Positions 11,556 to 43,348 of a stretch of 64,000 nucleotides of DNA are shown here, piece after piece. The first letter of the stretch is position 1; each line of letters opens with the position of its first letter. A program made the position numbers and the translations under genes. The notes under the pieces were generated by a model that saw only the letters and a program-made list of their open reading frames with translations, was not told the origin of the DNA and ran no database searches. Source of the stretch: Candidatus Omnitrophota bacterium (GTDB lineage Bacteria; Omnitrophota; Gorgyraeia; Gygaellales; Profunditerraquicolaceae); the NCBI GenBank assembly GCA_028712375.1, contig JAQTQG010000002.1, positions 8,032 through 72,031 of the forward strand, given 5' to 3'.

Positions 11556-11631
11556 CCCGCCCCTTCTTTCTTATTTAGTTTATTTAACCGGACAGCTTTA
11601 GAAATCAAACATTTAGCAGGAACAGGGTTCA

Positions 11632-12291: not shown

Positions 12292-12347
12292 CTTGCACCT
12301 TATTTTATATTTAGTCCATTAACCCGATAACCTTAATAATCGAATAA

Positions 12348-16648: not shown

Positions 16649-16798
16649 TAGAACACCCCTTTTATAATTTATGGTGAACTATTATAACAGCAAAAAAACC
16701 TGCTCGCAATTCATTTAAAGCGAAAAAACAGGTTTTTCCATATTTTGAAAACTAGGCCAAAAATAAATAAGCCCTCTATTTTTCTATTTTTTAACCGG

Positions 16799-16827
16799 TT
16801 GACAGGACAGAACGGCTAAGATATACT
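16799..16827 (+). promoter_or_regulatory. Sigma70-like promoter for the tRNA-Leu transcript (TTGACA-17-TATACT)
   Basis: Consensus -35 and -10 hexamers with 17-nt spacing, ~180 nt upstream of tRNA-Leu. Confidence 0.5.
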
Positions 16828-16896
16828 TAAAGAATTGTAAATTCCCCACAGCTATTACGGGGGATTGACCCTTGATCTCTCTAATGTTCAATCGGG

Positions 16897-17005
16897 GACT
16901 GCGCTAGATAAAAACTATAAGGTGCTTGATTTAACAGAGTGCTTGCCCTTGCTCGCTAACGCTCGCAAGGACTACGCTAGATAAAAACTATAAGGTGCTT
17001 GATTT
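16897..17005. repeat. 37-nt tandem direct repeat (ggact[g/a]cgctagataaaaactataaggtgcttgattt) flanking a CCTTGC...GCAAGG family hairpin; forms the tRNA-Leu leader
   Basis: DR1 16897-16933 and DR2 16969-17005 differ by 1 mismatch. The hairpin cccttgctcgctaacgctcgcaagga lies at 16946-16972. Confidence 0.75.
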
Positions 17006-17086
17006 GCGGGAGTGGCGGAATGGCATACGCGCACGTCTCAGAAGCGTGTGGGGCAACCCTTGAGGGTTCAACTCCCTCCTCCCGCA
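17006..17086 (+). tRNA. tRNA-Leu (anticodon CAG), long variable arm
   Basis: GCGGGAGTGGCGGAATGGCATACGCGCACGTCTCAGAAGCGTGTGGGGCAACCCTTGAGGGTTCAACTCCCTCCTCCCGCA. Acceptor GCGGGAG/CTCCCGC, T-arm GAGGGTTCAACTCCCTC. Confidence 0.85.
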
Positions 17087-17215
17087 TTAAAATCTCATGA
17101 GGAGGGACTCCTCCCGCATAAAGATCATGAAGAAGAATTTCCGCTTCATCAACTGCTCTTGCGCTAAATTCAAAACTTACTTAAATACTAAATTCCTTCT
17201 TTAACCAATTGACAA

Positions 17216-18391
17216 TCAAAGATACTCGACGGTAACCAGTTTCCCCATTTTTTTAAGCTTATCGATAATCTTCTGAATAATCGCCACCCGCGGCAAAACC
17301 CCCATTTGGCGAAAAACAATATTCTGATATCCCGGATTAGCGGCAGTACCAACTAACAGATTCACTGCATCCACCGAACGCAAAAACATACAAAGACTAG
17401 AAACACAAGAATCAGCCTCATAAGAACCGGGGTCTTCTTCAAGGATATTATAAACCTGATTTAAAGTTAAAACGCCTTCGGTAACCAGATCGATACCGGA
17501 AACTTCATACTGCGGCGGTTTATAATAAGCATCGGAAATCGCCTTAGTTTTAACCGATACACCTAAAAACTTAGCAACAATATCTGCGGTTGTAGAACCA
17601 CAAATAATTTTAATCCCGGGCAAATACATAAAATGTTCTACAGTCTTTTGATCGAACTGACGGTCTGCCGGCGGCCCGGTAAGAATATGCGCTGTTTTTG
17701 TTTTGCGGCATTGCAGAAGAACCACCGTAGAATCATCACCATAGGTCGGCCCGGAATACTGACGCACTTTCTCGATAATCATCTGCGGCAGCATCTCTAC
17801 TGACATCCCTTGAGCAAGAGCGGAACGGATAAACTCCTCCACCCCTTCTTCCCTCCAGCCCAACCGGAAAGTCGAACCCATTCCGGCCTGAGACACCCCA
17901 TCGCTGAATAGAAGCAAAGAATTATGCGTATGCAAATAAAAATGCGCCTCCGCAATCACCTCATTACCCAAAGCAATAAAACGCGGCTGGACTATCGAAG
18001 CAGCCATCTGCCCGATAATTATCGGGGCCGGCATTTCATATGCAGTTACCGTGGTATGCCCATCATTCAGAATCCGGCAGACACAAAACGCAGAAAACGG
18101 AATATCCTGCGTACGGGCAGCGTGCATAGTCATCGCAACTTTAGCCGATGCCTGGCGCAATGAAAAACCGAGCCGTAATAATTCCATCAAACGATTAGCC
18201 GCCATTACCGCAGCGATATGCGCCCTCACACCGCTGCCGATACCATCGCAAAGAATTACCGTTGTAGCTTCTTCAGTGCGTTCAGAAAGCAGATAATCCC
18301 CGCACACAGGCGCGGTGGATTTATTCACCTGGGCAACGGTAATCCCGATATACTTTTTAGAGTTCTGCGGCCTTATCTTCACCATCTTCAT
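17216..18391 (-). CDS. PP2C-type Ser/Thr phosphatase (SpoIIE/RsbU-like) with an uncharacterised C-terminal domain; co-transcribed with the sensory hydrogenase
   Basis: N-terminal PPM motifs (ILCDGIGSGVRAHIAAVMAANRL ... FSDGVSQAG ... YGDDSTVVLL). It overlaps the 3' end of the HydS-like gene by 35 nt. Confidence 0.7.
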   Translation of the reverse strand: MKMVKIRPQNSKKYIGITVAQVNKSTAPVCGDYLLSERTEEATTVILCDGIGSGVRAHIAAVMAANRLMELLRLGFSLRQASAKVAMTMHAARTQDIPFSAFCVCRILNDGHTTVTAYEMPAPIIIGQMAASIVQPRFIALGNEVIAEAHFYLHTHNSLLLFSDGVSQAGMGSTFRLGWREEGVEEFIRSALAQGMSVEMLPQMIIEKVRQYSGPTYGDDSTVVLLQCRKTKTAHILTGPPADRQFDQKTVEHFMYLPGIKIICGSTTADIVAKFLGVSVKTKAISDAYYKPPQYEVSGIDLVTEGVLTLNQVYNILEEDPGSYEADSCVSSLCMFLRSVDAVNLLVGTAANPGYQNIVFRQMGVLPRVAIIQKIIDKLKKMGKLVTVEYL

Positions 18392-20093
18392 TTAAGGTCA
18401 TTAATTTATTCACCAACTCTTCACCCCTGGCAGTACTTTCCCCTAAAAACTGAGCGATATTCTGTGCCATCTTAATTTGATGCTCCAGTAATTCCCTGGC
18501 CTGCCCAACGGTCTGGCTTTTTATCTTACGCAGCTTCTGCTCATTATCACGCAAATGCGACACATCCACAAAAATCCCGACATATTGTTTTTCCTGGCGT
18601 AACGCGTAAATCAGTTGATGGCAGGTTAAATTATACCCGCTAAACTCTACGGTTTCCGCTGAATACTCTTGGGCACCACAGGCAATCTTCTCAAAAACTG
18701 CAGGATCCAACACAAATGAAATATGCTTACCAACAGCTGTATCGGCACAAGCGAAAAATTTCTTAAACGCCTTATTCATGCTGATGATCTGTAAATCCTG
18801 GTTTAAAATCACAATCCCGTTGGGGCTAGTCTCGATTATCCGGTCAGTTTTACATTCGGCCAGCCGGCGCATATATGGAATACACATTTCCGGCTCCGCC
18901 AGCCCTTGAATAACCGCAATCGCTTTTTCCCGGCAGCTATTATAACCACAGGCCCCGCAATTAAGCTGATGATCAGGATCAGCTTTGCCGGTTTGCTCAA
19001 ACACCGCCAAAATATCCTCCTGGCTTACCGGCGCACAAAAATCACCGACCTGATGAAAACTGGAACAAAATAAATCCGGGTTTTCAATCAATGGAATGCT
19101 TTTTTGGGCATTTTTCTGACAATACTCCAATAGCTCCTGGCGCCGCTGAAAAACATTAGATTCAACACTCATCACCGGGCTATTAATACAACCTTGGCTG
19201 CAAAAAAGCGGCTCAAGCAGCAAATAATTTTTGCTTTCAGGAACTGCCTCCAGTAATTCTTTGACCTGGCCAAAACCGCTTGCCTGAACTACCTCCATCT
19301 GTAAGCCATCATCTTTAATTCCGGCGGTTTTAAGTAAACCTCCGGGTAAAGGAAAAAAACTTGCCGCTTCCACCGGCTCCTCGTCAAAAGAACTTTCTTC
19401 GCAAGCAGCCAGATCAATACCTGCAACTTGAAACCAATTTTTAAGTTCCGTAAATGTCAATACAGCATCTACCGCCTGCTGTACTTGAGGCCATTGCGCT
19501 TCCGATTTTTTTGCAACACAAGGGCCGATGAATACTGTTTTAGTATCTTTGCCGAGTTTTTCCTTAAGCATACGGCAATGTACCACCATTGGAGAAGCCA
19601 CGGGAATAAGATAATCGATCAGTTGCGGCTGATAACGTTGGACATAATTAACCAGGGCCGGGCAAGCAGTAGCCACGCAGGGGCCTTGTTTTTTCTGCCG
19701 CACAAACCTATACGTAGCATGGGCAACCTGATAAGCGCCTTGCGCTGTTTGTCCGATATAGTTAAAACCTAACCGGCGCAAAGCCGAAGCCAACCGCTGC
19801 CTCTGCCACTGATTAAACACCGCGGCAAATGACGGGGCTATGCTTACCGCTACTTTTTTCCCGGAAGCCAGCATTTCTTGGACTATTTCAATATCGCAAC
19901 GATAAGTTTTAGCCTGCTGCGGGCACTCGCGGATACAAGTTCCGCAGGCAATACAACGATCCTGATCTACATAAGCCTGCCCATGGCGCATCCGGATAGC
20001 TTTTACCGGACAAGCCCGCACGCAGCGATAGCAATCGCGGCAACGCGCTGTTAAGGTAAAAACAGCCTGATTTAGCCCGGCATTATTATTCAT
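18357..20093 (-). CDS. hydS: Sensory [FeFe]-hydrogenase-like protein (HydS type): N-terminal 4Fe-4S ferredoxin domains, degenerate H-cluster domain, C-terminal PAS domain
   Basis: 2x CxxCxxCxxxCP ferredoxin motifs. H-cluster-like motifs diverge from the catalytic consensus (ACPALV for TSCCPAW, GPCVAKKSE for MPCxxKxxE, EPLFCSQGCINSP for ExMACxGGCxxG). A PAS-like segment lies at the C-terminus. Confidence 0.7.
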   Translation of the reverse strand: MNNNAGLNQAVFTLTARCRDCYRCVRACPVKAIRMRHGQAYVDQDRCIACGTCIRECPQQAKTYRCDIEIVQEMLASGKKVAVSIAPSFAAVFNQWQRQRLASALRRLGFNYIGQTAQGAYQVAHATYRFVRQKKQGPCVATACPALVNYVQRYQPQLIDYLIPVASPMVVHCRMLKEKLGKDTKTVFIGPCVAKKSEAQWPQVQQAVDAVLTFTELKNWFQVAGIDLAACEESSFDEEPVEAASFFPLPGGLLKTAGIKDDGLQMEVVQASGFGQVKELLEAVPESKNYLLLEPLFCSQGCINSPVMSVESNVFQRRQELLEYCQKNAQKSIPLIENPDLFCSSFHQVGDFCAPVSQEDILAVFEQTGKADPDHQLNCGACGYNSCREKAIAVIQGLAEPEMCIPYMRRLAECKTDRIIETSPNGIVILNQDLQIISMNKAFKKFFACADTAVGKHISFVLDPAVFEKIACGAQEYSAETVEFSGYNLTCHQLIYALRQEKQYVGIFVDVSHLRDNEQKLRKIKSQTVGQARELLEHQIKMAQNIAQFLGESTARGEELVNKLMTLNEDGEDKAAEL

Positions 20094-22093
20094 AGCGTTT
20101 TCTCAATTCTTTCTTTTATTCTTTCAAAATTGCAATTTTCAAAAATCTCATCGCCGACCCTGACCACCGGACCCCGGTCACATTTCTCAAAACAAAACGA
20201 AGCCTTAACTTCAACCTTATCGCTCAAGTTATTTTCCCGGATATATTCCAACAACTGCCGCAGCAATGCCTGAGCGCCTTTAAGAAAGCATCCTGTGCCA
20301 AAACAAACTACTAGTTCTATTTTCTTATCCGATTCCGATATTGAAGCATTAATCGTTACCCCTTCATCAAAAATACGCTTACGCGTCTTATAATGAGTAT
20401 GCAGCAGGTTATGCGCTTTGTGCCCGCCTACACTCCCCAGAAGATTTTTGTAAAGCTCATTTAAATATGGATTATCCTGGGATTTATGCAATTGCAGCAT
20501 TTTGTCATTTTCATAAATACCTTTGGTGCGTTTTTTCCTTACCGAAGGATCACGGTAAACCGGCTGCCCTGCTCCGCCCACACAGCCCCCCGGGCAGGCC
20601 ATTACCTCCACGAAATCATACTTCAGATTACCCGTTTTCATTTTCTCAATCAGATTCCGCGCATTCTTAAGCCCGCTTACTACCGCTAATTTAAATTCCC
20701 GTCCGCCAAGTGCCACGGATATTTCGCGTATCCCGCTATCTCCGCGCGCCGCCTGAAATTCATAATTATCGCTTTTTTCCCCCGTTATTTTTTCCGTAAC
20801 AAAACGTAATACCGCCTCGCTGACGCCTCCAGAAGCTCCAAAAATAACCCCGGCACCGGTCTTAAAACCAAACGGTAAATCAAAAGATTCCGGCTCCAGG
20901 GATTCAAAATGTAAACCCGCCTCCTCAATCATCCGGCATAATTCCTGAGTCGTAAGCACATAATCCACATCCGCAACTTCTCCGTGCTTAAACTCCGGGC
21001 GCTTAGCTTCAAACTTTTTAGCCGTACAAGGCATAATCGAAACAACAACAATATCTTTCCGGTCAATTCCTAATTGCGCGCTTAACATTTCTTTGCTCAA
21101 AACCCCAAACATCTGCTGCGGAGAACGGCAGCTGGAAATATTTTTAAGCAACTCCGGGTAATATTGCTCCGCAAATTTTACCCAGGCAGGACAACAAGAA
21201 GTAAATTGCGGGATAAGTTCATTTTTCTTAATCCGCTCAATAAATTCATGGCCTTCCTCAATTACCGTAAGATCGGCAGTAAAAGAAGTATCAAAAACCT
21301 TATCAAAACCCATCGCACGCAAAGCTGAAACAATTTGCCCGGTAGAAGTAGCTCCCGGTTCCAAACCAAACATCTCTCCTACAGCCACGCGTACCGCCGG
21401 AGCAATCTGCGCAATCACCACGCGCTTAGGATTATCCAAAGCTTTCCACACTTCTTCTACTTCGGATTTAGGAGTCAACGCACCGGTAGGGCATACCCGG
21501 CTGCATTGCCCGCAATATACGCACTCCACGCTATCTAAATTTTTACCAAAACAAGGCATCACCGCTGATTTAGATCCACGATGAGCAAAATCAATCGCCC
21601 CTACCGACTGTATTTCAGAACACACCCGCACACAATCTCCGCACAATACGCATTTATTGGGATCGCGCACCAATGAATAAGAAGAATCATCCAGCGCTTC
21701 CTGACGCAGAGTATTTTTAAATCTTACTTTTTTAATCCCCAGCTTACTGGCTAAAGATTGTAACTGGCAATGATTGTTCTTCGGGCATGTCGGGCACCCC
21801 TGATCATGATTGGCTAAAAGTAACTCTACAATAATCTTGCGCATTGAACGGATCTGTTCAGTATTGGTACGCACAGACATTTTGTTCTCCGGGGGAGTCG
21901 AGCAGGCAGGCTGCAGTCCGCGCCCCTGAACCTCCACCATACATAACCGGCAAGCCCCATATACGCTTAATTCGGAATGATAACAAAAGGTCGGTAAATC
22001 AATCTTGGCTTTTCGCACTAACTCCAGCAGGTTACGCTCACCTTCCATCTTAACCTGCTTATTATCAATTAAAACATATGCCGCCTCTTTCAT
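20090..22093 (-). CDS. hydA: [FeFe]-hydrogenase catalytic subunit HydA (bifurcating trimeric type) with N-terminal 2Fe-2S/4Fe-4S domains and a C-terminal thioredoxin-like 2Fe-2S domain
   Basis: H-cluster motifs FTSCCPAWV (L1), IMPCTAKKFEA (L2) and EVMACPGGCVGGAGQP (L3), plus the N-terminal CYHSELSVYGACRLC. Confidence 0.92.
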   Translation of the reverse strand: MKEAAYVLIDNKQVKMEGERNLLELVRKAKIDLPTFCYHSELSVYGACRLCMVEVQGRGLQPACSTPPENKMSVRTNTEQIRSMRKIIVELLLANHDQGCPTCPKNNHCQLQSLASKLGIKKVRFKNTLRQEALDDSSYSLVRDPNKCVLCGDCVRVCSEIQSVGAIDFAHRGSKSAVMPCFGKNLDSVECVYCGQCSRVCPTGALTPKSEVEEVWKALDNPKRVVIAQIAPAVRVAVGEMFGLEPGATSTGQIVSALRAMGFDKVFDTSFTADLTVIEEGHEFIERIKKNELIPQFTSCCPAWVKFAEQYYPELLKNISSCRSPQQMFGVLSKEMLSAQLGIDRKDIVVVSIMPCTAKKFEAKRPEFKHGEVADVDYVLTTQELCRMIEEAGLHFESLEPESFDLPFGFKTGAGVIFGASGGVSEAVLRFVTEKITGEKSDNYEFQAARGDSGIREISVALGGREFKLAVVSGLKNARNLIEKMKTGNLKYDFVEVMACPGGCVGGAGQPVYRDPSVRKKRTKGIYENDKMLQLHKSQDNPYLNELYKNLLGSVGGHKAHNLLHTHYKTRKRIFDEGVTINASISESDKKIELVVCFGTGCFLKGAQALLRQLLEYIRENNLSDKVEVKASFCFEKCDRGPVVRVGDEIFENCNFERIKERIEKTL

Positions 22094-23997
22094 TGCCCAC
22101 CCCCGATAATTGCTTTAAACTTACAGGTTGCCACGCAAGCGCCGCATTTAATGCATATTTTTTGATCAATTACATAAGGTTTACCGGGTTGACCGCTGAT
22201 TGCGTTCACCGGGCATTTTTTACCGCACAAAGAACAACCTTTGCATAAATCCGGATTTATTTTATATTTAGTCAAAGCTTTACAGCGCCCTGCCGGACAA
22301 TATTTGTATTTCACATGCGCCTGGTACTCATCGTGAAAATAACGTAAAGTCGATAATACAGGATTCGGTGCGGTCTTGCCTAACCCGCATAACGACCCGA
22401 CCTGCACCGCTTTAGCCAGGTCTTCCAGAATTACCAAAGTTTCATCCGTTGCCCTGCCTTCAATAATATCATCCAATAAAGCCAACATCTGCTTGGTCCC
22501 TTCACGGCAAAGCACACATTTACCACAAGATTCATTTTGGGTAAACTGCATAAAGAAACGCGCGATACTCACCATGCAGGTCTGGCTATTCATGACAACC
22601 AGGCCGCCGGAACCGATCATCGCGCCTACTTTACGCAACGAATCAAAATCCATCGGGATATCCAGGTGTTCCCGAGTCAGGCATCCTCCGGAAGGCCCTC
22701 CGATTTGTACTGCTTTGAATAATTCAGAGCAAACTGTCCCGTCTTCAGCAGTTACTCCGCCGGCAATTTCATAAACAATCTGGCGTAAGGTCGAACCAAA
22801 GGGAACTTCAATCAAACCTGTATTCACCACATGCCCGGTTAACGCAAAAGTCTTAGTACCGCAAGAACCGGAAGTACCCATCTTTGTATAATCTGCTGCG
22901 CCCATTAACACGATCAACGGAACAGTGGCCAAAGTTTCCACGTTATTAATTACCGTCGGTTTACCCCAAAGCCCGCTTTGCGCCGGGAATGGCGGCTTAG
23001 GGGAAGGCATACCGCGTTTACCTTCGATTGATGCCATCAAAGCCGTCTCTTCACCGCAGACAAAAGCACCGGCACCTTCCATTACCTGCAGGTCAAAATT
23101 AAATCCTGAAGCAAAAATATTTTTACCCAGCACCCCTAATTTACGGGCATCTTCAGCGGCTTTACGCATACGGCGTACAGCCAGCGGATATTCAGCGCGC
23201 ACATATACATATCCTTCATCCGCGCCAATCGCTTTAGCCGCGATCATCATTCCTTCAATAACGCTATGTGGATTGCCTTCCATAACGCTCCGGTCCATAA
23301 ACGCCCCCGGGTCACCTTCATCTCCGTTACAAATCACATACTTCTTGTCGCCTTTCTGGCGTAAGGTAATATCCCATTTCTTTCCGGTAGGAAAACCTCC
23401 GCCGCCGCGCCCGCGCAGCCCTGCGGCGATCATTAAATCGCAAACTTCTTGTGGCCGCATAGAACAAACTACCCTGCCTGCGGCCTCATAACCTCCCCGG
23501 TAAATGTATTCACGAATATCTTCCGGATCAATCTGGCCGCACTCTTTAAGGACAAATCGATGTTGTTTTTGATAAAAAGGGATCTCCTTCGGTGTAGTGC
23601 AGGATTTACCGCTGGAAGGCTCAACATATAAAAGACGCTGAATCACTTCACCTTTCATTAAAGTTTTATTTACAATCTCTTCAGCATCCGCAGGCTTAAC
23701 CCGGGTGTAAAAAATATTTTCCGGCAATATCGTTACTAAAGGGCCCATCTGGCAAAACCCCTGGCATCCGCTCTTAGAAACAAAAACAGAACTATCGGCA
23801 ACTTTATCTTCCCGGCGTAGTTCTAAAACCACCGGCAGTCCGCTTTTATGCAGCTGTGCTTCCAGCTGCGCATATACTTTCAATGACCCGTTAGCCACAC
23901 AACCGGTCCCCGCGCAAACAATAACCCTGCGCACCTGCTTTAAACTTTCGGAAAATTCTTCCCGAATAACCTTAAGATCTGGTAACTGCACCGCCAT
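22090..23997 (-). CDS. hydB: NADH-binding flavoprotein subunit HydB (NuoF-like; FMN, NADH and Fe-S binding)
   Basis: GRGGGGFPTGKKW NuoF motif, an N-terminal thioredoxin-like 2Fe-2S region, and C-terminal 2x4Fe-4S ferredoxin motifs. Confidence 0.9.
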   Translation of the reverse strand: MAVQLPDLKVIREEFSESLKQVRRVIVCAGTGCVANGSLKVYAQLEAQLHKSGLPVVLELRREDKVADSSVFVSKSGCQGFCQMGPLVTILPENIFYTRVKPADAEEIVNKTLMKGEVIQRLLYVEPSSGKSCTTPKEIPFYQKQHRFVLKECGQIDPEDIREYIYRGGYEAAGRVVCSMRPQEVCDLMIAAGLRGRGGGGFPTGKKWDITLRQKGDKKYVICNGDEGDPGAFMDRSVMEGNPHSVIEGMMIAAKAIGADEGYVYVRAEYPLAVRRMRKAAEDARKLGVLGKNIFASGFNFDLQVMEGAGAFVCGEETALMASIEGKRGMPSPKPPFPAQSGLWGKPTVINNVETLATVPLIVLMGAADYTKMGTSGSCGTKTFALTGHVVNTGLIEVPFGSTLRQIVYEIAGGVTAEDGTVCSELFKAVQIGGPSGGCLTREHLDIPMDFDSLRKVGAMIGSGGLVVMNSQTCMVSIARFFMQFTQNESCGKCVLCREGTKQMLALLDDIIEGRATDETLVILEDLAKAVQVGSLCGLGKTAPNPVLSTLRYFHDEYQAHVKYKYCPAGRCKALTKYKINPDLCKGCSLCGKKCPVNAISGQPGKPYVIDQKICIKCGACVATCKFKAIIGGGQ

Positions 23998-24481
23998 TTA
24001 AACGCTCCTCTTTCTTTAAAATTTCATCAATAAGTGCTACTGCTTTTCCCGGAGTCATCTGCCCATGCACCTCATCATCCACAACAATAACCGGTGCCAG
24101 TCCGCAAGCACCCAGGCAAGAAACAGTCTCAATTGTAAATAACATATCCGGGGTAGTCATAACATTATCTTTAAGCCCGAGTTTCTGACGCATCGCCTCT
24201 AATAGCCCGGTAGATTTTTTAACATGGCAGGCTGTACCGTCACAGATACGAATAATATATTTGCCTTTAGGTATCAGGGTAAAATGCGAATAAAAAGTAG
24301 CCACCCCATATACTCTGGCCGGGGTTAAATTCAAAGATACCGCAACAAAAGTAAGGATCTCCTCCGGCAGGTAACGGTACTCTTCCTGCACTGCCTGCAG
24401 AATAGGAATCAACCGGCTGGGATCCCGGTTATTCTGCTGAAGTATTTGACAAACTTTTTCTAATTTACGCAATCCTTCCAT
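23972..24481 (-). CDS. hydC: NuoE-like 2Fe-2S subunit HydC
   Basis: Thioredoxin-like [2Fe-2S] ferredoxin motifs ICDGTACHVK and CLGACGLAPV. Confidence 0.9.
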   Translation of the reverse strand: MEGLRKLEKVCQILQQNNRDPSRLIPILQAVQEEYRYLPEEILTFVAVSLNLTPARVYGVATFYSHFTLIPKGKYIIRICDGTACHVKKSTGLLEAMRQKLGLKDNVMTTPDMLFTIETVSCLGACGLAPVIVVDDEVHGQMTPGKAVALIDEILKKEERLNGGAVTRS

Positions 24482-24497
24482 TTCTCTATTTTTCTCC

Positions 24498-25163
24498 TTA
24501 TCTTTCCGCTAATAATAATGCCAGCCGTTTGGATAATACGGCAAGTGAAGACGCTAAGTTTTCATGTTGAACAATAATGCCTTCAGGGACACTTATCTTG
24601 ACCGGAGCAAAGTTCCAAATCGCTTTAATCCCGGCTTCTACCATCATATTAGCAAGTTCCTGAGCAGGCGCAGCAGGCGCAGCCAGGATACCTATTTTAA
24701 TCCCCATGCGCTTGATCATTTCCGGAAGCTTCTTTACCGATAAAACTTTCTTACCCCTGATCTCTTTGCCAATTTTTTCAGGCGAACTATCAAAAGCAGC
24801 GACAATATTTAACCCGTAATCCTTAAACCCCTGGTAACCCAAAAGTGCCGAACCCAGGTTCCCGGTTCCCACCAGATAAGCTTCCGTAGTATTATTCCAA
24901 CCCAAAAAATTCTCAATCGCCTTAATTACCTCTGCTACTTTATAACCGACCTTCGGCCTGCCTTCTGCTCCGGTAATCTCCAAATCTTTACGCACCTGAA
25001 TCGCCAGCGTATTCAAATCCTCGGAAATCCGGGTGCAAGATATGTATTCAACAGGACGATCTTGGACAATCTTTTTTAAATACTGATAATAAACCGGCAA
25101 CCTGCGCAACACCGGCTCAGGAATAACTTTTACCACTAGTTCTGCGGGCCTGGGGTTAACCAT
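24498..25163 (-). CDS. rex: Redox-sensing transcriptional repressor Rex
   Basis: N-terminal winged helix (PEPVLRRLPVYYQYL) and a Rossmann NADH-binding domain (LVGTGNLGSAL). Confidence 0.9.
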   Translation of the reverse strand: MVNPRPAELVVKVIPEPVLRRLPVYYQYLKKIVQDRPVEYISCTRISEDLNTLAIQVRKDLEITGAEGRPKVGYKVAEVIKAIENFLGWNNTTEAYLVGTGNLGSALLGYQGFKDYGLNIVAAFDSSPEKIGKEIRGKKVLSVKKLPEMIKRMGIKIGILAAPAAPAQELANMMVEAGIKAIWNFAPVKISVPEGIIVQHENLASSLAVLSKRLALLLAER

Positions 25164-25185
25164 AATCCTACCTCCGGGTTAAATA

Positions 25186-25234
25186 GATAAATATTTATCA
25201 ATAAAAGTATATCTATAAAAATTTATCTTGTCAA
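25186..25234 (-). promoter_or_regulatory. Promoter of the rex-hydCBA operon (TTGACA-17-TATACT on the minus strand) with a 14-bp palindrome GATAAATATTTATC at the +1 region (candidate Rex operator)
   Basis: -35 is the reverse complement of 25229-25234 and -10 the reverse complement of 25206-25211. The palindrome at 25186-25199 resembles the Rex box TTGTGAAATATTTCACAA (TTGATAAATATTTATCTA on the minus strand). Confidence 0.5.
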
Positions 25235-25348
25235 GAGAATATTTTTACACCCAATAAATTGAATAATGGATTTACTAAGCTACAATTATATTACGTTAAT
25301 ATTGCTGGGGAATTCTTGGCAGGTTACTTGTATATCTTAAGCGGGAAA

Positions 25349-26422
25349 CTACTGCCTTTTGCCACTCTCCCACTCAAAGAAACACTTTCGATAAGCTTTA
25401 AAAGAAGGCTTAACAGAATAATCCCAACGCACTAAACCAAAATAATCAACACCATTGTCCCAATGTTCCCTGGTATCGCGGAAAAAAGCCCAGAAAATCT
25501 TTTCAACATGCTGGTCCTTTAATAATCCGCCATAAACCTCTTTTACCCATTCAGCTTGCTGGCGTTCGTTAGAATTCTGGCCCATCCACCAATTATTTGT
25601 CTTTAATGACGATTTTACTCCCGGGCAGCCGGTCTCGGTTATCCAAATTTTCTTCCCGGCATCACCATTACGCGCCATTATTTTATAGGCAAGCTTAGGA
25701 TAATTAATCACCGCTTTTAAACCATTTTTGCCGTGTAGTGGGCTTTCAAAAAAATGCAGGTTTAATATATCAAAATAATCTTTGGCGCCATTATCATATA
25801 AATGATTAATGCTAGCCAACCCGTTAGCGATACCGCCATTTAAAATCCTGCAATCCTGGTCTATTTTTTTGGCTGCCAGATAAACCTCTTTTAATAAAAC
25901 ACAGTAGGACTTAAGGCTATCCTGTTGCTTCCAGTAAATGACAGAATCCGGCTCGTTCCAAACCTCCCAATGTTTAACCTGGCCCCTATAACGCTGTATA
26001 ACCTTGCCGGCATAATTTACGAATTTTTGATTGTCTCGAGGAGGGCAATTCCATTCTCCGCAGGAGGAAGCCCAGTTTGTGCTATAATGTAATATACCTA
26101 AAATATGAATACCTTTGGCCTTAAGCAATTTAACGAGATTATCATATTTAATAAAATCAAAGCTTCCTTCCTGCGCTTCAATATCTGACCATAAAAAATC
26201 CAGTCTTACCCAGCCGACCCCGGCCTTCTGCATTAAAGAAATAGTTTTCTCCAAGCCGCGCCCGCCGGGATATTTATAATTATTCCAGGAATGGTTCCAG
26301 TGTAAAAATTCCAAGACCCCAAAAGGATTCTCTAAATTTTCCTTCTCCGGCTTTACCATATCGCTCCTTATCTCTTCCTGCCCTGAAATCTCCCCGGCTA
26401 GCAAACTATGAGAAATGAACAA
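25349..26422 (-). CDS. Glycoside hydrolase, clan GH-A (GH5/GH39-like) with an N-terminal signal-like region
   Basis: A WNEPD motif (acid/base Glu in NEP) and an ITETG motif (nucleophile Glu), with TIM-barrel-like spacing. Confidence 0.6.
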   Translation of the reverse strand: MFISHSLLAGEISGQEEIRSDMVKPEKENLENPFGVLEFLHWNHSWNNYKYPGGRGLEKTISLMQKAGVGWVRLDFLWSDIEAQEGSFDFIKYDNLVKLLKAKGIHILGILHYSTNWASSCGEWNCPPRDNQKFVNYAGKVIQRYRGQVKHWEVWNEPDSVIYWKQQDSLKSYCVLLKEVYLAAKKIDQDCRILNGGIANGLASINHLYDNGAKDYFDILNLHFFESPLHGKNGLKAVINYPKLAYKIMARNGDAGKKIWITETGCPGVKSSLKTNNWWMGQNSNERQQAEWVKEVYGGLLKDQHVEKIFWAFFRDTREHWDNGVDYFGLVRWDYSVKPSFKAYRKCFFEWESGKRQ

Positions 26423-26508: not shown

Positions 26509-27882
26509 CTAACGAGGCTCATGGGGTTTTTGCTCAATATTGATATAGTCCCCAAAATCTATCTTTTCGCCGAGCTCTTGTTTCACAACCCTGATCCGGT
26601 CAGGGACATAAGGGTGAGTCTTATAATATGAGCGCTCCCTAAGCGGCATCCTGCGGTTTATATCCTGAAGCTTAATTAAAAAAGTCACCATGCCATGCGG
26701 ATCGTAACCGGCTAACTTAGCATAACGGGCACCCAGCTGATCCGCCAATAACTCATCTTCACGCCCATAACCCAGTAAAAACTCAGTAAAAGCGGCATCC
26801 GCGGCATTACCCACATCCGAAGCACCGGGAGCTACCGCTACCAAAACCCTTAAAATAGAATAGCTCTGCATCGCCTGAAGCTTCTTAATGCTATGCCGGG
26901 CAACAATGTGCCCTACCTCATGCGCTAAAATACAGGCCAACTCATCATCATTAGCCACTTTATCCAACAGGCCGCTGTTCACATAAACATACCCTCCGGG
27001 CAAAGACACGGCGTTTACCTCATCATCCTCTAAAACCCGGAAATGATAATCGATTTCTTTTCTATCGCTGACGGCAGATATCTTTTTTCCGATATCTTCC
27101 ACGCGTTTCTGCTGCAGCGGATCGGCAGAAAGTTTTAATTCTTTCTCTACTCTTAAGTTAATGGACCGGCCCATCTGCACTTCCTTATCCGTACTGTAAT
27201 AATATTTTTCTTCCTGCTTAGTAGCAAGATTATATTCCGTAGAACATCCGGGCAAAACCAGTGCGGCCATCAAACAATAAGTAAGCGTTAAAAAGAATGA
27301 AAATAACTTTATATCAAATTTCTTAAGCATCAAATACAACTTTCTCAAAGGCAGGCCGACTACATTATAGAAACAACCATCTATGCTCTTAATAAAAAAT
27401 GCCCCTTTTCCCTGAATATCAAAACTCCCCGCTTTATCCAAAGGAGAAACTTGTTTAAAATAATTATCAATCTGCGCCTGGCTTAATTTATCCATACAGA
27501 CTCTTGTTTTTTCATAATCCAATATTAAACTCTGCTTAGTTTTATTTTTTTTGATCACTGCCAGGCCGGTGTAAAGCCATTGCGGACGGCGGGATAACTG
27601 TTTAAGCATCCGGCGGGCATCCGGTATATTTTTGGGCTTGCCGAATATTTTGCCATTTTGCACACAAACAGTATCGGCGGCGATGATTACTCCTTCTGCC
27701 ACCCTGGAAGCCACCTCTTCTGCTTTTTCCCGGGCATTCTTCTGCACGAGCTGAGAGTATGACAATTTACCGCGTTTAGCTTGTTCCTTGATTTTAGAAG
27801 GCAGGACTTTAAAACGCAGGCCAAATTTCTCTAATAATTTCTTTCTGGCTTTAGAATTGGAGGCTAAATATATTTTCACCAT
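26509..27882 (-). CDS. Maf-like nucleotide pyrophosphatase fused in frame to a lipoprotein-type M48 (BepA/LoiP-like) zinc metalloprotease
   Basis: N-terminal Maf (MVKIYLASNSKARKKLL ... NVVGLPL). An in-frame internal signal peptide with lipobox (MLKKFDIKLFSFFLTLTYCLMAALVLPGCS) follows. Then an M48 domain (ILAHEVGHIVARHS, THPYVPDRI). The start is set at MVKIY because the upstream ORF extension overlaps a structured noncoding element. Confidence 0.6.
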   Translation of the reverse strand: MVKIYLASNSKARKKLLEKFGLRFKVLPSKIKEQAKRGKLSYSQLVQKNAREKAEEVASRVAEGVIIAADTVCVQNGKIFGKPKNIPDARRMLKQLSRRPQWLYTGLAVIKKNKTKQSLILDYEKTRVCMDKLSQAQIDNYFKQVSPLDKAGSFDIQGKGAFFIKSIDGCFYNVVGLPLRKLYLMLKKFDIKLFSFFLTLTYCLMAALVLPGCSTEYNLATKQEEKYYYSTDKEVQMGRSINLRVEKELKLSADPLQQKRVEDIGKKISAVSDRKEIDYHFRVLEDDEVNAVSLPGGYVYVNSGLLDKVANDDELACILAHEVGHIVARHSIKKLQAMQSYSILRVLVAVAPGASDVGNAADAAFTEFLLGYGREDELLADQLGARYAKLAGYDPHGMVTFLIKLQDINRRMPLRERSYYKTHPYVPDRIRVVKQELGEKIDFGDYINIEQKPHEPR

Positions 27883-27899
27883 ATCTTTACCCATAGATA

Positions 27900-28045
27900 A
27901 ACGGTGAGACTTGTTTAAGCAGCATCTTAAAATTCGAGCGGGCAAGGTTGCCCGCAATAAATGTCTTGGCAGAGCGAGAATTTTACCGAAGCGCAGCTGG
28001 CCACGCTGGGGCCAGCAAGCGGTGCGGCGAGAACAAGTCTCACCG
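27900..28045. other. ~146-nt GC-rich structured element bounded by 13-bp inverted repeats (GGTGAGACTTGTT / AACAAGTCTCACC); candidate small ncRNA or MITE-like insertion
   Basis: Terminal inverted repeats, plus internal hairpins GCGGGCAA-gg-TTGCCCGC and GCTGGCC-acgctggg-GGCCAGC. It is intergenic between the Maf-M48 gene and the HI0933 flavoprotein. Confidence 0.5.
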
Positions 28046-28049
28046 CTAA

Positions 28050-29294
28050 CTAACTTACCGCCGCGCTCTCTCCTGCCAAATACCCGGTTGAGAATGCTGC
28101 CTGAAGGTTAAATCCGCCGGTATCCGCATCCACATCGATCATCTCCCCGCAAAAATATAACCCCTTAACCAGGCGAGACTCCATCGTGCGTGGATCAATC
28201 TGCTTTAAACTTACTCCACCGCGGGTAACCATCCCTTCCTCAATCGGCCGGGGCCCGGAAATATCCAGATGAAAGCTCTTAAGTAAAGAAAGGATCTTTT
28301 CCCTCTCCTTTTGCGTAATCTGGCTGCATTTTTTTAACGGATCAATCCCGGCAACGTCAATAAAAATCATAATTAAACGCAAAGGCAATAACTCTTTAAG
28401 CATGTTCTTTATGCTCTTTTTAGAATTTAACTTAAACTCTCTAAGTAAGCGGGCATCCAACTGCTGAACCGATAAGGCCGGCTTTAAATCTATCTCCACA
28501 AAAACAGCTTTATCCGGCACGCTTAAATCTATAACCTTGCCGCTTAAAGTAATCACCAGCGGGCCGGATATTCCGCCTGCGGTAAAAACCAATTCGCCAA
28601 TCTCTGAAACAATCTCCCGTTTTCCGTCGGAAAATGTAAGCTTAATATTGCGTAAAGTTAACCCTTCCAGCTTTTTTACATAATTTTGTTTCACATCCAA
28701 CGCGACTAAACCGGGCTGCAAAGGGACTATAGTATGCCCTAATTTCTTAGCAATTTTTATTCCGGAAGCATCGGAACCGGTAAAGCTGTAGCTAGCCCCT
28801 CCGGAAGCTAAAATAACACGATCACTGGGAATATCCTGGCCGTTTTCTAAACGCACTCCTTTTGCCTGTCCACCGATAATAATTAAATCCACAACTTTAC
28901 TGCGGAAGGCAATCTGCACCCCGGCCTTAACCAATTCATCTTCTAATACTTTAAGTATGCTGGCAGACCGGTCGGTTTGCGGAAATACCCGCAGTTGACG
29001 TTCGATTTTTAATTTTAAACCACGATCTTCAAAAAAAGAGATCAATTCCTGATTAAAAAATTTCTTAAAAGCATCCCTTAGAAAATCGCCATTTTTGGAG
29101 AAACGTTTTAGAAAATTAGGGAGGTCTTCTGTATTGGTAAGATTACAGCGGCCTTTGCCGCTAAGCAGGAGCTTATTGCCCAGAGTGCTCTTTCTCTCCA
29201 GGAGAATAACCTCCTGGCCCAGAGTGCGCGCCCGGATTGCCGCCATTATACCTGCCGGCCCACCACCGGCTACTAAAATTTTTAATTTTTTCAC
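28050..29294 (-). CDS. HI0933/BaiN-family NAD(P)/FAD-dependent flavoprotein
   Basis: N-terminal GGGPAG dinucleotide-binding motif. ~410 aa HI0933-like architecture. Confidence 0.8.
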   Translation of the reverse strand: MKKLKILVAGGGPAGIMAAIRARTLGQEVILLERKSTLGNKLLLSGKGRCNLTNTEDLPNFLKRFSKNGDFLRDAFKKFFNQELISFFEDRGLKLKIERQLRVFPQTDRSASILKVLEDELVKAGVQIAFRSKVVDLIIIGGQAKGVRLENGQDIPSDRVILASGGASYSFTGSDASGIKIAKKLGHTIVPLQPGLVALDVKQNYVKKLEGLTLRNIKLTFSDGKREIVSEIGELVFTAGGISGPLVITLSGKVIDLSVPDKAVFVEIDLKPALSVQQLDARLLREFKLNSKKSIKNMLKELLPLRLIMIFIDVAGIDPLKKCSQITQKEREKILSLLKSFHLDISGPRPIEEGMVTRGGVSLKQIDPRTMESRLVKGLYFCGEMIDVDADTGGFNLQAAFSTGYLAGESAAVS

Positions 29295-30755: not shown

Positions 30756-30762
30756 CTATGAA

Positions 30763-30837
30763 CCCCGCACCTTCCATATATCCAACTATTAAAACCGTGC
30801 GGGATAACAAATTAAATGAGAAAGAAGGTGCGGGGTG
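30763..30837 (+). promoter_or_regulatory. Inverted-repeat hairpin sequestering the lptF Shine-Dalgarno and GTG start (CCCCGCACCTTC...GAAGGTGCGGGG-TG)
   Basis: 12-bp arms separated by ~49 nt. The 3' arm contains the SD GAAGGTG and ends in the GTG start codon. An identical module sits upstream of radA at 49076-49147. Confidence 0.6.
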
Positions 30838-31938
30838 AAGATCCTGCGTAATTACATTTTAAGGGAATTCCTCGGTCCGCTGCTTCTGGTTTTGGGAGTG
30901 TTGACCTTTGTTATGGTGCTTATCGGCAATTTAAAACGCATCGCGGATCTAGTGATTAATAAAGGAGTGGATATCTTTAGTGTCATCCAGATTTTCATCT
31001 ACCTTACTCCTTATATTGTTACTTATACCTTGCCCATATCAATACTAGTGGCAGTATTACTGGCTTTAGGCAGATTAAGCGGAGACAATGAAGTAATCGC
31101 AATCCGCGCCAGCGGCATCAACTTATTTAAATTAATACTGCCCTTACTAACCATCGGATTAGCCTTGAGTTTAGCCCTGGCAGTTTTTAACGACCAGGCA
31201 GCATCCTATTCCCATTTTGCTTACCGCAAAACCTTGCAGGAAATGGGGATTAAAAATCCTACTGCCGCCTTTGAAGAAGGAGTATTTATTGATTCCTTCA
31301 AAAAATACATTCTTTTTATCTACAATGTTGACCAGAAAAAAAACCGGCTCAATAACATCCGCATCTATGAACCACAGGGCGAAGACCGGCCCACTCGCAC
31401 GATTGTGGCGAAAGCCGGAGAATTTATTACTGTGCCCGGTAAAAACACCGTAAAATTGAAGCTTATCGATGGAACCAGTGATGAGCCGGATCCGGAGAAC
31501 CCGACTAATTTTTATAAACTAAATTTCCGTACCTACTTCATGAACCTGGATATGGCACAAATGCAGGATAAGGTTGTAGAAAAGAAATATAAAGAAATGA
31601 CAATCCGCGAACTCAAAAAAGAAGCGGCTAAGCTTAAATCCGAAGGCATCAGCCCGGCGCCCCTAATCACCAAAATACATGAAAAACTAGCTTTGGCATT
31701 CTCCTGCTTTGTTTTCATGCTTCTGGGATCCTCATTGGGAATTATTACGCGCAGGCGCGAAAAATCCATTAACATCGGAATTGCCGTACTGATCATTGTC
31801 TGCTACTATCCTTTATATATCGGCTTAACCGCGCTGGCTATGGAAGGAGCTTTACCGGCAGCACTTGCCATCTGGTTGCCGAATATTATCTTTGCCGGTG
31901 TAGGCAGCTATTTAACTTATAAACTATGCGCATCTTAG
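30835..31938 (+). CDS. lptF: LPS export ABC transporter permease LptF (YjgP/YjgQ family)
   Basis: 6-TM YjgP/YjgQ architecture with a periplasmic beta-jellyroll insert. GTG start. Paired with lptG. Confidence 0.8.
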   Translation: MKILRNYILREFLGPLLLVLGVLTFVMVLIGNLKRIADLVINKGVDIFSVIQIFIYLTPYIVTYTLPISILVAVLLALGRLSGDNEVIAIRASGINLFKLILPLLTIGLALSLALAVFNDQAASYSHFAYRKTLQEMGIKNPTAAFEEGVFIDSFKKYILFIYNVDQKKNRLNNIRIYEPQGEDRPTRTIVAKAGEFITVPGKNTVKLKLIDGTSDEPDPENPTNFYKLNFRTYFMNLDMAQMQDKVVEKKYKEMTIRELKKEAAKLKSEGISPAPLITKIHEKLALAFSCFVFMLLGSSLGIITRRREKSINIGIAVLIIVCYYPLYIGLTALAMEGALPAALAIWLPNIIFAGVGSYLTYKLCAS

Positions 31939-33097: not shown

Positions 33098-33122
33098 CCC
33101 TTGCTCGTTTCACTCGCCAGGA
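33098..33122. repeat. Hairpin repeat cccttgc-tcgtttcactc-gccagga (CCTTGC...GCAAGG family)
   Basis: Near-identical to the 7519-7543 copy. Confidence 0.7.
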
Positions 33123-33176
33123 TTTCGTTAAACAGAGCATAAAGTGCTCAATTCGCGACAGCCTTATGGCCTCAGC

Positions 33177-36328: not shown

Positions 36329-37375
36329 TTATTCTTTCCTCAACATTCTTCTGATATTGCGAATATACGGCATCCGGATAATTCCCCGTTCAGTAATAAT
36401 CCCGTTAATTAATTGGTGCGGAATAATATCAAAAGCCGGATTAAGCACTCTGGCATTCTTTGGGGTAATCTCTCTTTTAAATAACAAGGAGGCTACCTCC
36501 TTATCCTTACGCATCTCAATCTTTATTCCGGAGCCATCTTTTATCTTTAGGTCAAAAGTACTCTTAGGGGCAGCAACATAAAAAGGCACCTTATGATATC
36601 TGGCTAAAACTGCCAGGTTAAAACTGCCGATTTTATTCGCCGTATCGCCGTTTGCCGCAATACGGTCAGCGCCGGTAATTACCACATCCACCTTGCCTTC
36701 CTGCATCAACTTGGCAGCCGTGTTATCAGCGATCAATGTAACATCAACCCCCTGTTTATGCAATTCCCAGGCGGATAGGCGCGCTCCCTGTAATAAAGGC
36801 CGCGTTTCGCAGCAAAAAGCTTCTAGCTTCTTGCCCTGCGCCTGGGCGGAGTAAATGACCCCCAAGGCAGTGCCGTAATCAATCGTCGCCAGTATTCCGG
36901 CATTACAAATCGTCAAAACTTTATCATTTTTTCTAAACAGCTTGGACCCATAATAACCGATCTTGCGGCAGGAAAGCGCATCTTCCCGCATAATCGATTT
37001 TGCATCAGCTAATATAATTTGCTTAATTTGGGTAATCGGCTTAGTTTTATTGGCTGCCGCAACCGCTAATATTCTTTCTATCCCCCAGAATAAATTCCTG
37101 GCGGTTGGACGGCTGCTGGCAAGATATTTCGCTACAGAGGTTAATTTCCGGTTGAATTTATCCCAATCAGAACAAACATAATCTTTTATTCCTAAATACA
37201 TTCCCAATCCGGCGGCTGCCCCTAAAGCCGGAGCACCCCGCACCTGCATTATCTTAATTGCCTGCCAAAGGTCTTCCAAGCGATTAATATCAATATATAC
37301 TAATTTAAGCGGTAATTTTGTTTGATCAATAATCCTAACCTTATTACTCTTCCAGTCTATTGTACGAATATTCAT
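36329..37375 (-). CDS. mtnA: S-methyl-5-thioribose-1-phosphate isomerase (eIF-2B alpha/beta/delta family)
   Basis: MNIRTIDWKSNKVRIIDQTKLP ... VGADRIAANGDTANKIGS. The start is placed at MNIRT; the ORF track offers an upstream Met at 37468. Confidence 0.8.
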   Translation of the reverse strand: MNIRTIDWKSNKVRIIDQTKLPLKLVYIDINRLEDLWQAIKIMQVRGAPALGAAAGLGMYLGIKDYVCSDWDKFNRKLTSVAKYLASSRPTARNLFWGIERILAVAAANKTKPITQIKQIILADAKSIMREDALSCRKIGYYGSKLFRKNDKVLTICNAGILATIDYGTALGVIYSAQAQGKKLEAFCCETRPLLQGARLSAWELHKQGVDVTLIADNTAAKLMQEGKVDVVITGADRIAANGDTANKIGSFNLAVLARYHKVPFYVAAPKSTFDLKIKDGSGIKIEMRKDKEVASLLFKREITPKNARVLNPAFDIIPHQLINGIITERGIIRMPYIRNIRRMLRKE

Positions 37376-37502
37376 ATTTGCGTAAGTTGATATTTTTACG
37401 GGTGGCTTGGGTGTTTTTCCGCCACCTGGCGGACACCCGCGCAATTCCAATTGGCGCGGGGTGCCCATGTGATAAACCCCAAGACAGGACCCGTAAAAAT
37501 TA

Positions 37503-43244: not shown

Positions 43245-43326
43245 GGCGGGTCCTGTCTGCCAATCCACCTCGCCGTGCTCACTTGCGTTGCGCGCGACAA
43301 GGGCTCTGTCTTGGCAGTCACCCGCC
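43245..43326. other. GC-rich ~80-nt imperfect long hairpin between the cysS stop and the tmk start; candidate cis-regulatory RNA or small ncRNA
   Basis: GGCGGGT...CTGCCAA pairs with TTGGCAG...ACCCGCC. Internal GC-rich stems (CTTGTCGCGCGCAACGCAAG). No U-tract. Composition contrasts with the AT-rich surroundings. Confidence 0.45.
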
Positions 43327-43348
43327 GTAATCAAAACCGTATCAGCCG

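Follow-up and report, generated by a model that had tools for sequence, protein, structure and literature searches.

In a 64,000-nt stretch of contig JAQTQG010000002.1 from a Candidatus Omnitrophota bacterium (the window, in which positions are counted unless a locus is named), a GC-rich domain lies between the gene for an HI0933-like flavoprotein and maf. What kind of element is it, and how did it come to separate these two genes? The original prediction proposed a small regulatory RNA, possibly 6S-like, with a miniature inverted-repeat transposable element (MITE) as the fallback. We find that the element is probably one copy of a dispersed, gene-less, inverted-repeat-bounded mobile family of the Omnitrophota, which resembles MITEs and the paired repetitive extragenic palindromic (REP) sequences called REPINs. 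This palindromic repeat family is apparently undescribed so far, as a full-text literature search for palindromic or MITE repeats in Omnitrophota or Omnitrophica found nothing relevant.

A palindromic element fills the flavoprotein–maf spacer

The spacer between the two genes, both carried by the minus strand, extends from 27883 to 28049, and the element fills this entire non-coding gap. It displays a perfect 13-bp inverted repeat (GGTGAGACTTGTT at 27903–27915, with its exact complement at 28032–28044), as had been predicted, except that the 5′ arm starts one base to the right of the proposed 27902. The arms pair over 15 bp (27902–27916 with 28031–28045), show 83% complementarity over 23 nt and close a GC-rich 155-nt domain containing internal hairpins, among them the two stems named in the original prediction, GCGGGCAA/TTGCCCGC and GCTGGCC/GGCCAGC. 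Both strands fold far better than their shuffled counterparts, with −73.6 kcal/mol (z = −7.1) for the plus strand and −65.8 kcal/mol (z = −6.2) for the minus strand, and 0 of 200 shuffles as good in either case. The GC content of the element (52.9%) exceeds that of the window (42.3%) and of the maf side (43.4%); the announced contrast with the flanks is however one-sided, because the flavoprotein gene, too, is rich in GC at its 3′ end (49.8%). The view that no open reading frame (ORF) explains the element stood up well: the 66-aa plus-strand ORF running through it (27911–28111) has no Pfam match, is not conserved and is an artefact. The 5′ extension of the maf ORF is likewise artefactual, as homologues indicate that maf starts at ATG 27882.

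Dispersed copies of the element form a family

Neither the 13-mer nor the whole element has a second copy in the window, as judged by 13-mer search, repeat finding and a covariance model. Copies do occur at other loci: an exact scan of metagenome contigs for two core blocks, GGGCAACCNTGCCCGCTC N5–15 AGATGCTGCT (a 27-base exact core), returned 72 stretches, 70 of them at other loci and two (L121 and L151; L and a number denote a locus) at the flavoprotein–maf junction, with one 515-kb contig being matched three times. Applied to the 81 sources made up of the window and the flavoprotein-anchored loci described below, the covariance model of the family (R1) gave a single match in the window, plus one diverged copy in L049; on the metagenome loci, it recovered 11 further full copies that the exact pattern had missed. 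Three copies lie within 6.3 kb in L093, two of them added by the model, and second copies are present in nine other loci. Altogether, one 515-kb contig carries at least five full copies in the 28 kb of it that were examined (three in L093, the others in L097 and L121), compared with one copy in the 64-kb window. Nine contigs (L013, L095, L099, L111, L123, L132, L137, L141 and L148) have an end inside the element, both ends in the case of L148, and the repeat is evidently a cause of breaks in metagenome assemblies.

Family members are 155–185 nt long and have no coding capacity. All copies are intergenic: no real gene spans any of them, and the few overlapping ORFs run through the repeat itself. 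The ends of the element often lie 0–20 nt from the ends of ORFs, which leaves no room for a promoter or terminator of its own. Between co-directional genes, the two orientations are found 17 and 14 times, or 20 and 15 times when all 71 copies are counted, and the element is also found between convergent and divergent gene pairs; the family is indifferent to the direction of host transcription. Clustering of the neighbouring proteins yielded groups of orthologous sites only, with no recurrent partner gene. The core pattern had no match in viral contigs, where the 48 matches to a 15-mer of the frame, all lacking the partner arm, are those expected by chance in GC-rich DNA.

At the family level, the terminal arms extend over about 25 bp and pair imperfectly, GCGGGT(CCTGC)CGAGNCTTG being opposite CAAGNCTCG(NC)ACCCGC. 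Three layers can be distinguished: (i) a terminal frame, TTAGCGGGTCCTGYC ... GYCACCCGCTAA, which consists of a GC stem with an asymmetric internal loop and of an A/T-rich outer stem; (ii) a second stem, CGAGNCTTG/CAAGNCTCG; and (iii) a branched core of about 110 nt, which is specific to this subfamily. Two other elements of the window have the same type of frame around different cores (CGGGTCCTGTC ... G[CT]CACCCG, with a complementary A/T or GC outer stem); both are intergenic, and the spacer orthologous to one of them, 37398–37494, carries the 150-nt core in L097, L147, L108 and L111, in both orientations.

Gain, loss and inversion at orthologous sites

A protein scan anchored on the flavoprotein yielded 80 loci, almost all from Candidatus Omnitrophota. 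The order flavoprotein–maf–M48 peptidase is kept in about 65 of them, with a flavoprotein–maf spacer of 0 to about 220 nt, and about 20 of these 65 syntenic loci have no spacer at all. The empty sites of L007, L017 and L018 read ...TTATGA..., stop and start codons overlapping in ATGA, which implies that the ancestral gene pair was translationally coupled and that the content of the spacer was inserted. The element occupies this spacer in the same orientation as in the window in L055 (79% identity over 150 nt), L011, L013 and L121, and in the opposite orientation in L019 (87% over 139 nt) and L003. Some of these copies are altered: the L011 copy lacks one hairpin, the inverted L003 copy lacks its centre, both through internal deletions, and the L013 copy is cut by the end of the contig, while L028 and L067 retain one end of the element only. 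The similarities of the element and of its neighbours are incongruent: the element is 87% identical to the L019 copy, whereas the adjacent gene is 75.7% identical at the nucleotide level, and other cores are found in L001 and L002, the relatives whose gene is most similar (84%).

The frame (CGGGTCCTGYC ... GYCACCCG) surrounds unrelated cores in the spacers of L001, L002, L005, L006, L008, L034, L051, L052 and L070; it is inverted in L004 and L037 and nearly bare in L010. A comparison of L001 with L004 reveals an inversion in place: the inner 62 nt match at 58 of 62 positions as reverse complement and at 47 of 62 in the forward direction, between flanks that are collinear (20 of 25 and 14 of 19 positions identical). 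At orthologous sites, members of the family have thus been acquired or lost, flipped in place, shortened by internal deletion or replaced by one another, and the flavoprotein–maf spacer is a hot spot for hairpin insertions. Still other long hairpins are seen there in other Omnitrophota (L052:1696–1907, L025:5245–5453, L044:1805–1997, L012:5245–5332, L022:5251–5320 and L038:1821–1914); they include two frame-type hairpins standing in tandem in L052 and several unrelated perfect palindromes of 60–200 nt.

The presence of both orientations at the same site in relatives (the window compared with L019, and L001 with L004) would also be expected of an inverton, i.e. a DNA switch in which an invertase acting at the inverted repeats turns maf expression on and off. 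We nevertheless hold this explanation to be extremely unlikely. The element contains no consensus promoter and resides at dozens of unrelated sites, including sites between convergent genes; the differences in orientation observed are between species; the four neighbouring ORFs, to which the Pfam scan was confined, include no invertase; and recombination between the arms of any palindrome would produce the same flip.

A branched fold maintained by compensatory changes

The consensus given by RNAalifold on a first MAFFT alignment was poor and was replaced by a hand-defined structure followed by realignment with Infernal. Model R1 was built on 57 distinct copies, its ‘R’ orientation corresponding to the plus strand of the window, and covariation was measured on a 71-copy alignment guided by the model. 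In this alignment, whose fit to the model somewhat inflates the pair counts, standard pairs occupy 90.4% of the cells, as against 78.2% in shuffles and 34–51% when the partners are slid. Changes on both sides are seen at 35 of 47 pairs (21.3 in shuffles) and in 347 cells (83.5 in shuffles), values reached by 0 of 500 shuffles in each case, and the same column pairs rank on top when mutual information is computed blind to structure. Intrastrand pairing of the element is therefore under constraint, and the conservation and covariation that the original prediction proposed to look for in related genomes bear out the fold.

On the plus strand, the family fold comprises the following parts: (i) helix P1, formed by the outer A/T stem and GCGGGT/ACCCGC; (ii) an asymmetric internal loop, GR opposite GCAGG, which separates P1 from helix P2 (CGAGNCTTG/CAAGNCTCG); (iii) helix P3, made of UUC/GAA and GCAGCAUC/GGUGCUGC linked by tandem G.A; (iv) a junction bearing two arms, P5 and hairpin P8, with P5 (AAAAUUC/GAAUUUU) enclosing hairpin P6 (GGGCA-NGGU-UGCCC) and a variable linker. 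Changes in the outer A/T stem are compensatory, its versions being TTAGC/GCTAA, TTTTGC/GCAAAA, TTTTAC/GTAAAA and TAAAC/GTTTA. In P3b, a U.G wobble is nearly invariant (60 of 71 copies, and all 57 copies of alignment A2), while a divergent subfamily has GCAGGGCG opposite CGTCCCTGC, again in a compensatory manner. Covariation affects all eight pairs of P5, as illustrated by AAAAACTT/AAGTTTTT and CAAGAATTC/GAATTCTTG and by the GC-rich replacements of subfamily B. The stem of P8 is swapped wholesale with full compensation (CTCGCC/GGCGAG, ATTTTCC/GGAAAAT, CATTTCC/GGAAATG, CCCGCC/GGCGGG and ATCCTGCC/GGCAGGAT), and its loop (consensus WCGCNGG) is kept despite these swaps. P6 is nearly invariant, the search pattern having fixed a part of it, yet it is also kept in 12 copies found by the model alone; these 12 copies form a second subfamily with compensatory GC-rich P3b and P5. 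The four AGCG boxes of the junctions show little or no variation across the 71 copies, these 12 included. The window copy keeps all the core features, with one A.G mismatch in P3b besides the U.G wobble; whereas most members of the family have an asymmetric loop (CCTGYC opposite GYC) between P1 and P2, it has none, and its two outer helices are fused into a single perfect stem. Note that two unpaired columns flanking P8, columns 141 and 180 of alignment A4, co-vary (C...A in 32 copies, A...G in 29) and track the stem subfamily, which could reflect either a non-canonical contact or merely shared descent.

The first proposal, that of a stand-alone gene for a small regulatory RNA, 6S-like or other, drew on real features, namely a size of about 150 nt, strong folding and a long closing stem; 6S RNA (RF00013), with its 150–180 nt, likewise has its 5′ and 3′ ends paired in such a stem. 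However, 6S RNA is a rod with a large central bubble that mimics an open promoter, and it is encoded by one gene per genome, whereas the element is branched, mobile, present in tens of copies at unrelated loci in both orientations and, at the flavoprotein–maf junction, absent from many close relatives and inverted in others. The Rfam scan that had been suggested as a check was likewise unsupportive: Rfam 15 gave no match at the element, for RF00013 or any other family, at gathering scores over the window, where it detected one tmRNA and four tRNAs elsewhere; it gave only noise at E ≤ 10 over 27700–28250 and nothing at E ≤ 1 on the loci of ten canonical copies. The proposal of such an RNA gene thus has next to no chance of being right.

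Strand polarity: DNA or RNA

The copies give conflicting indications as to which strand forms the constrained fold. On the one hand, the plus strand has the more stable fold in 59 of 60 copies (mean difference 10.2 kcal/mol), and it is this strand that carries the near-invariant U.G, the tandem G.A and an excess of purine–purine mismatches (177, as against about 28 pyrimidine–pyrimidine ones). On the other hand, the difference between the strands is small once composition is controlled for (z = −5.16 versus −4.59, the plus strand being better in 22 of 30 copies), and the variable pairs include G.U (68) and A.C (50) in nearly balanced numbers, regardless of which strand the host transcribes. 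Because raw free energies, z-scores and G.U/A.C counts disagree, we leave the functional strand undecided.

These data bear on the possibility that the element is a functional structured RNA module that is mobile by chance, its branched core acting either in cis within operon transcripts (as a signal for processing, stability or decoupling) or in trans, as a guide- or bridge-like RNA that would contribute to its own mobility through a recombinase directed at the REP-like frame. Several observations favour it: P3b, P5 and P8 are far from the ends and yet kept by full compensatory replacement; neither the unpaired AGCG boxes nor the P8 loop vary between two deep subfamilies, even in the 12 copies that the search pattern did not select; the plus strand shows the bias just described; and the existence of frames with other cores, or nearly bare (L010 and L037; window 37398–37494 and 43246–43327), fits a scheme in which the frame is the target and the core the insert. 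Against it stand the random orientation with respect to host genes, the balance of G.U and A.C pairs, which does not track the transcribed strand, and the small size of the strand difference after composition control. Furthermore, a promoter scan returned weak, non-conserved matches only, and mutual information detected no covariation, guide-like or tertiary, between the loops and the flanks or ends. Lastly, no IS110-like or other recombinase gene is seen beside any copy. We therefore regard an RNA module of this kind as unlikely.

The polarity of the flanks also speaks to termination. The element lies directly past a stop codon and has a GC-rich stem, as a terminator or attenuator hairpin would, and its character of imperfect palindrome with unpaired bases and a variable centre recalls the attC sites of integrons. 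Yet the flanks read TTTT-stem-AAAA, the reverse of an intrinsic terminator, so that neither transcript gets a U-tract; no terminator-like site is predicted in 27600–28400; and a branched ‘loop’ of 100 nt is unfit for a terminator. As for attC, the ends of the element read TTAGCGGGT ... ACCCGCTAA, not R″/R′ core sites; there are no RYYYAAC/GTTRRRY core sites, cassette array or integrase; and the copies are solitary, between housekeeping genes. Either identity is very unlikely.

RAYT transposases and the probable mobility of the family

A candidate for the mobilizing activity came from related loci. A weak match to E. coli RayT drew attention to ORFs that lie 3.6 kb upstream of the flavoprotein gene in L001 and L019, at the margins of these loci, and are REP-associated Y1 tyrosine transposases (RAYTs) by Pfam Y1_Tnp (1.6e-9) and NCBIfam REP_Tyr_transpos (2.4e-14, on the C-terminal half). 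RAYT homologues are very numerous (thousands), and many of those bearing a source name are labelled Omnitrophota. In L153, L154, L155 and L156, RAYT genes lie between inverted arms, GGGGACGGTTCTA ... TAGAACCGTCCCC (GGGGACGGTTCT type), and a second RAYT clade has GGGGTCAGA... arms in L155b, L206 and L208. In nine loci (L016, L024, L031, L042, L048, L059, L060, L063 and L077), the flavoprotein–maf spacer is taken up by hairpins with arms of the first type, which occur 46 times in 22 of the 80 loci; neither arm type is found in the window. REP/RAYT systems are thus active colonisers of such sites in Omnitrophota. The left arm stands about 70 nt upstream of the RAYT start and the right arm directly past the stop; a conserved hairpin with a GGAGG ribosome-binding site (CCTCCTTTTACGTC...GAAGGAGG) immediately precedes the start codon, and in L155 a Fic/RHH pair separates two RAYT paralogues that lie 1 kb from each other.

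Taken together, these results suggest the following scenario. The element would have spread as a folded single strand recognized by a structure-specific enzyme, most plausibly a RAYT, because sister hairpin families share the same spacer and their arms flank RAYT genes; in the window lineage, it would have inserted into a former overlapping ATGA stop/start junction between the flavoprotein gene and maf. The window copy, which places a −66 kcal/mol structure 5 nt past the flavoprotein stop codon (TAG) and about 20 nt ahead of the maf start, would, if it is co-transcribed at all, form a strong hairpin between genes that used to be translationally coupled. It may no longer be mobile, because the asymmetric loop has been lost.

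A number of observations weigh against a MITE/REPIN-like mobile family, which we nonetheless consider the probable identity of the element. First, the 150-nt core is single-copy in the window, and there is no sign of a recent burst, because copies on one contig have diverged. Second, no target-site duplication was detected in the flanks searched, which complement each other in inverted orientation instead of forming direct repeats (many copies have TA on both sides, but the TTTTGC...GCAAAA copies do not), and the compensatory variation of the outer A/T stem is not predicted by ordinary cut-and-paste transposition. Third, no autonomous parent appeared as a pair of family ends 0.26–6 kb apart in the 1.15 Mb of sequence collected; no RAYT gene is present in the window or the 72 metagenome loci (L081–L152), and none flanked by the element's own ends (CGGGTCCTGYC arms) was found in the sampled contigs, a small sample with respect to thousands of homologues. 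Since no transposase gene bracketed by the ends of this family was found in the 1.3 Mb of sequence examined and in seven RAYT-bearing contigs, the link with RAYTs rests on analogy. Finally, the covariation counts are inflated to the extent given above, and the unpaired junction boxes and internal helices are conserved beyond the needs of a passive repeat.

This strong conservation of the core hints at an additional function, and leaves some limited room for a functional module of RNA or single-stranded DNA within the core. More specifically, the core (P3, P5, P6, P8 and the AGCG boxes) might be the working part of a new mobility system, either as a single-stranded DNA recombination site or as a guide- or bridge-like RNA that directs, in trans, insertion into REP-like frame hairpins; we judge this quite unlikely, but, if true, it would mean a two-layer system in which one repeat family parasitises another in Omnitrophota genomes.

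Comparison with known repeats and mobile elements

The REP, BIME and REPIN sequences of E. coli and Pseudomonas are associated with RAYTs, which are Y1 HUH transposases (PF01797). Like them, the Omnitrophota elements are short, gene-less, GC-rich imperfect palindromes that are intergenic, often just past stop codons, in both orientations and long-lived, their presence in orthologous spacers varies and symmetric changes maintain their hairpins; the two sister hairpin families, which form inverted arms around RAYT genes and share the flavoprotein–maf spacer, add to the likeness. Unlike them, the element is no simple REP doublet, given its branched core with conserved junction boxes, and a conserved GTAG head is not evident: (T)TAG is frequent before the GC stem, but TTTTAC, TTTTGC and TAAAC also occur. 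Nor was a RAYT with the ends of this family found among the sampled contigs.

ERIC/IRU of enterobacteria and Correia/NEMIS of Neisseria are MITE-like bacterial repeats of 100–160 bp. They resemble the element in size, in their long terminal inverted repeats, which form a hairpin in transcripts, in their presence in both orientations at transcribed intergenic sites, in a conservation above that of the flanking genes and in the existence of variants with internal deletions or insertions. Correia elements differ in that they contain an IHF site and are flanked by a TA target duplication; no target duplication is seen here. We know of no sequence relationship between the element and either group, and to our knowledge neither is known for a multi-helix core kept by covariation. 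As regards MITEs in general, the fallback of the original prediction holds in that the element is shorter than about 300 bp, gene-less, bounded by terminal inverted repeats, dispersed and polymorphic for insertion; it falls short in that no target-site duplication is seen, no autonomous parent was found and its internal structure is under a constraint absent from plain MITEs.

RNA-guided insertion sequences (IS) and their non-autonomous derivatives offer a third comparison. Omega/reRNA scaffolds are found in the PATEs of IS200/IS605; IS110/IS1111 elements have bridge or seek RNAs and target REP sequences, and those of the IS110 type insert into REP-like hairpins with a constant orientation. 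Such mobile units, in which a conserved structured RNA of 150–200 nt makes up the non-coding part, resemble our element, and the fixed orientation of its core inside a REP-like frame would match IS110. However, no TnpB, IscB or DEDD recombinase gene is seen near any copy, known elements of this kind have no closing stem joining both ends whereas this one does, and there is no guide-like covariation with the flanks.

The family thus joins MITE/REPIN-like behaviour with an RNA-like, covariation-supported branched core, and is unusual among bacterial repeats because this core is kept by compensatory changes and has invariant junction boxes. Should the core turn out to be functional, the family would be a new and compact case of a structured nucleic acid that is mobile, and would point to the enzyme acting with it. 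Annotations should treat the element as a repeat instead of a gene for a small RNA, and ORFs through it as artefactual. The uncultivated phylum Omnitrophota appears full of hairpin repeats, which have repeatedly split a translationally coupled gene pair.

Positions of the features and neighbouring sequences

Table 1. Features of the element, its flanking genes and related sequences (window positions, unless a locus is given)
Feature	Position	Strand	Remarks
Whole element, match to family covariance model R1	27883..28057	+	cmsearch 157.9 bits, E = 2.8e-49, 180/180 model positions
Closing stem, 5′ arm (P1 and P2 fused)	27902..27916	.	contains the 13-mer 27903–27915
Closing stem, 3′ arm	28031..28045	.	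complementary to 27902–27916
Helix P3b, 5′ strand GCAGCATC	27919..27926	+	pairs with GGTGCGGC at 28021–28028
Helix P3b, 3′ strand GGTGCGGC	28021..28028	+	pairs with 27919–27926
Helix P5, 5′ strand AAAATTC	27929..27935	+	pairs with GAATTTT 27978–27984; encloses hairpin P6 and variable linker
Helix P5, 3′ strand GAATTTT	27978..27984	+	pairs with 27929–27935
Hairpin P6, GCGGGCA-AGGT-TGCCCGC	27938..27955	+	GCGGGCAA 27938–27945 pairs with TTGCCCGC 27948–27955
Hairpin P8, CTGGCC-ACGCTGG-GGCCAG	27996..28016	+	GCTGGCC 27996–28002 pairs with GGCCAGC 28010–28016
Junction box 1, GAGCG	27936..27940	+	
Junction box AGAGCGA	27971..27977	+	
Junction box GAAGCG	27988..27993	+	
Junction box AAGCGG	28017..28022	+	
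Family ends, GCGGGTCCTGYCGAG ... CTCGNCACCCGC			
HI0933-like FAD/NAD flavoprotein, 414 aa (upstream gene)	28050..29294	-	Pfam PF03486, E = 9.6e-84
maf read in frame into M48 peptidase lipoprotein (downstream gene)	26509..27882	-	Pfam Maf 1.3e-55, Peptidase_M48 4.1e-33
Related element, same frame TTTTTACGGGTCCTGTCTTGG ... CCAAGCCACCCGTAAAAA, different core	37398..37494	-	
Second related element, same frame GGCGGGTCCTGTCTGCC ... GGCAGTCACCCGCC, another core	43246..43327	+	
RAYT (Y1_Tnp) genes	L153:9930-10690; L155:9929-10690 and 11600-12385; L156:9930-10670; L206:9930-10790; L208:9945-10720		

In the window, maf runs into the M48 peptidase in one frame with no stop between them, and the M48 part bears a lipoprotein signal of its own (LVLPGC). 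Some relatives (e.g. L001) have the two in different, overlapping frames, and others (L002 and L003) again have them in one frame; the arrangement is either a real fusion or the result of an internal TTG start for the peptidase.

At least five families of hairpin repeats are present among the Omnitrophota sequences examined, two of them tied to RAYT transposases. One family, with arms ACCCCGCACCTTC/GAAGGTGCGGGGT, is found at 30761–30841, 49072–49149 and 37234–37259, with seven arm matches in the window, and in a few related loci. Another, of the TCCTTGCGAGCGCAAGCGAGCAAGGA type and sometimes in tandem, occupies 7282–7391, 7520–7545, 16893–17014, 33099–33132 and 53953–53998; its repeats cluster beside the tRNA genes at 7409–7685 and 17006–17086, and one such repeat truncates a copy of the 150-nt element in L090 and L117. 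Finally, synteny with L001 and L019 jumps from position 25370 to 16658, so that about 8.7 kb of the window (about 16660–25370) are absent from these two loci. This segment, which is bordered by the tRNA gene at 17006–17086 and the repeats at 16893–17014, may be an integrated island.

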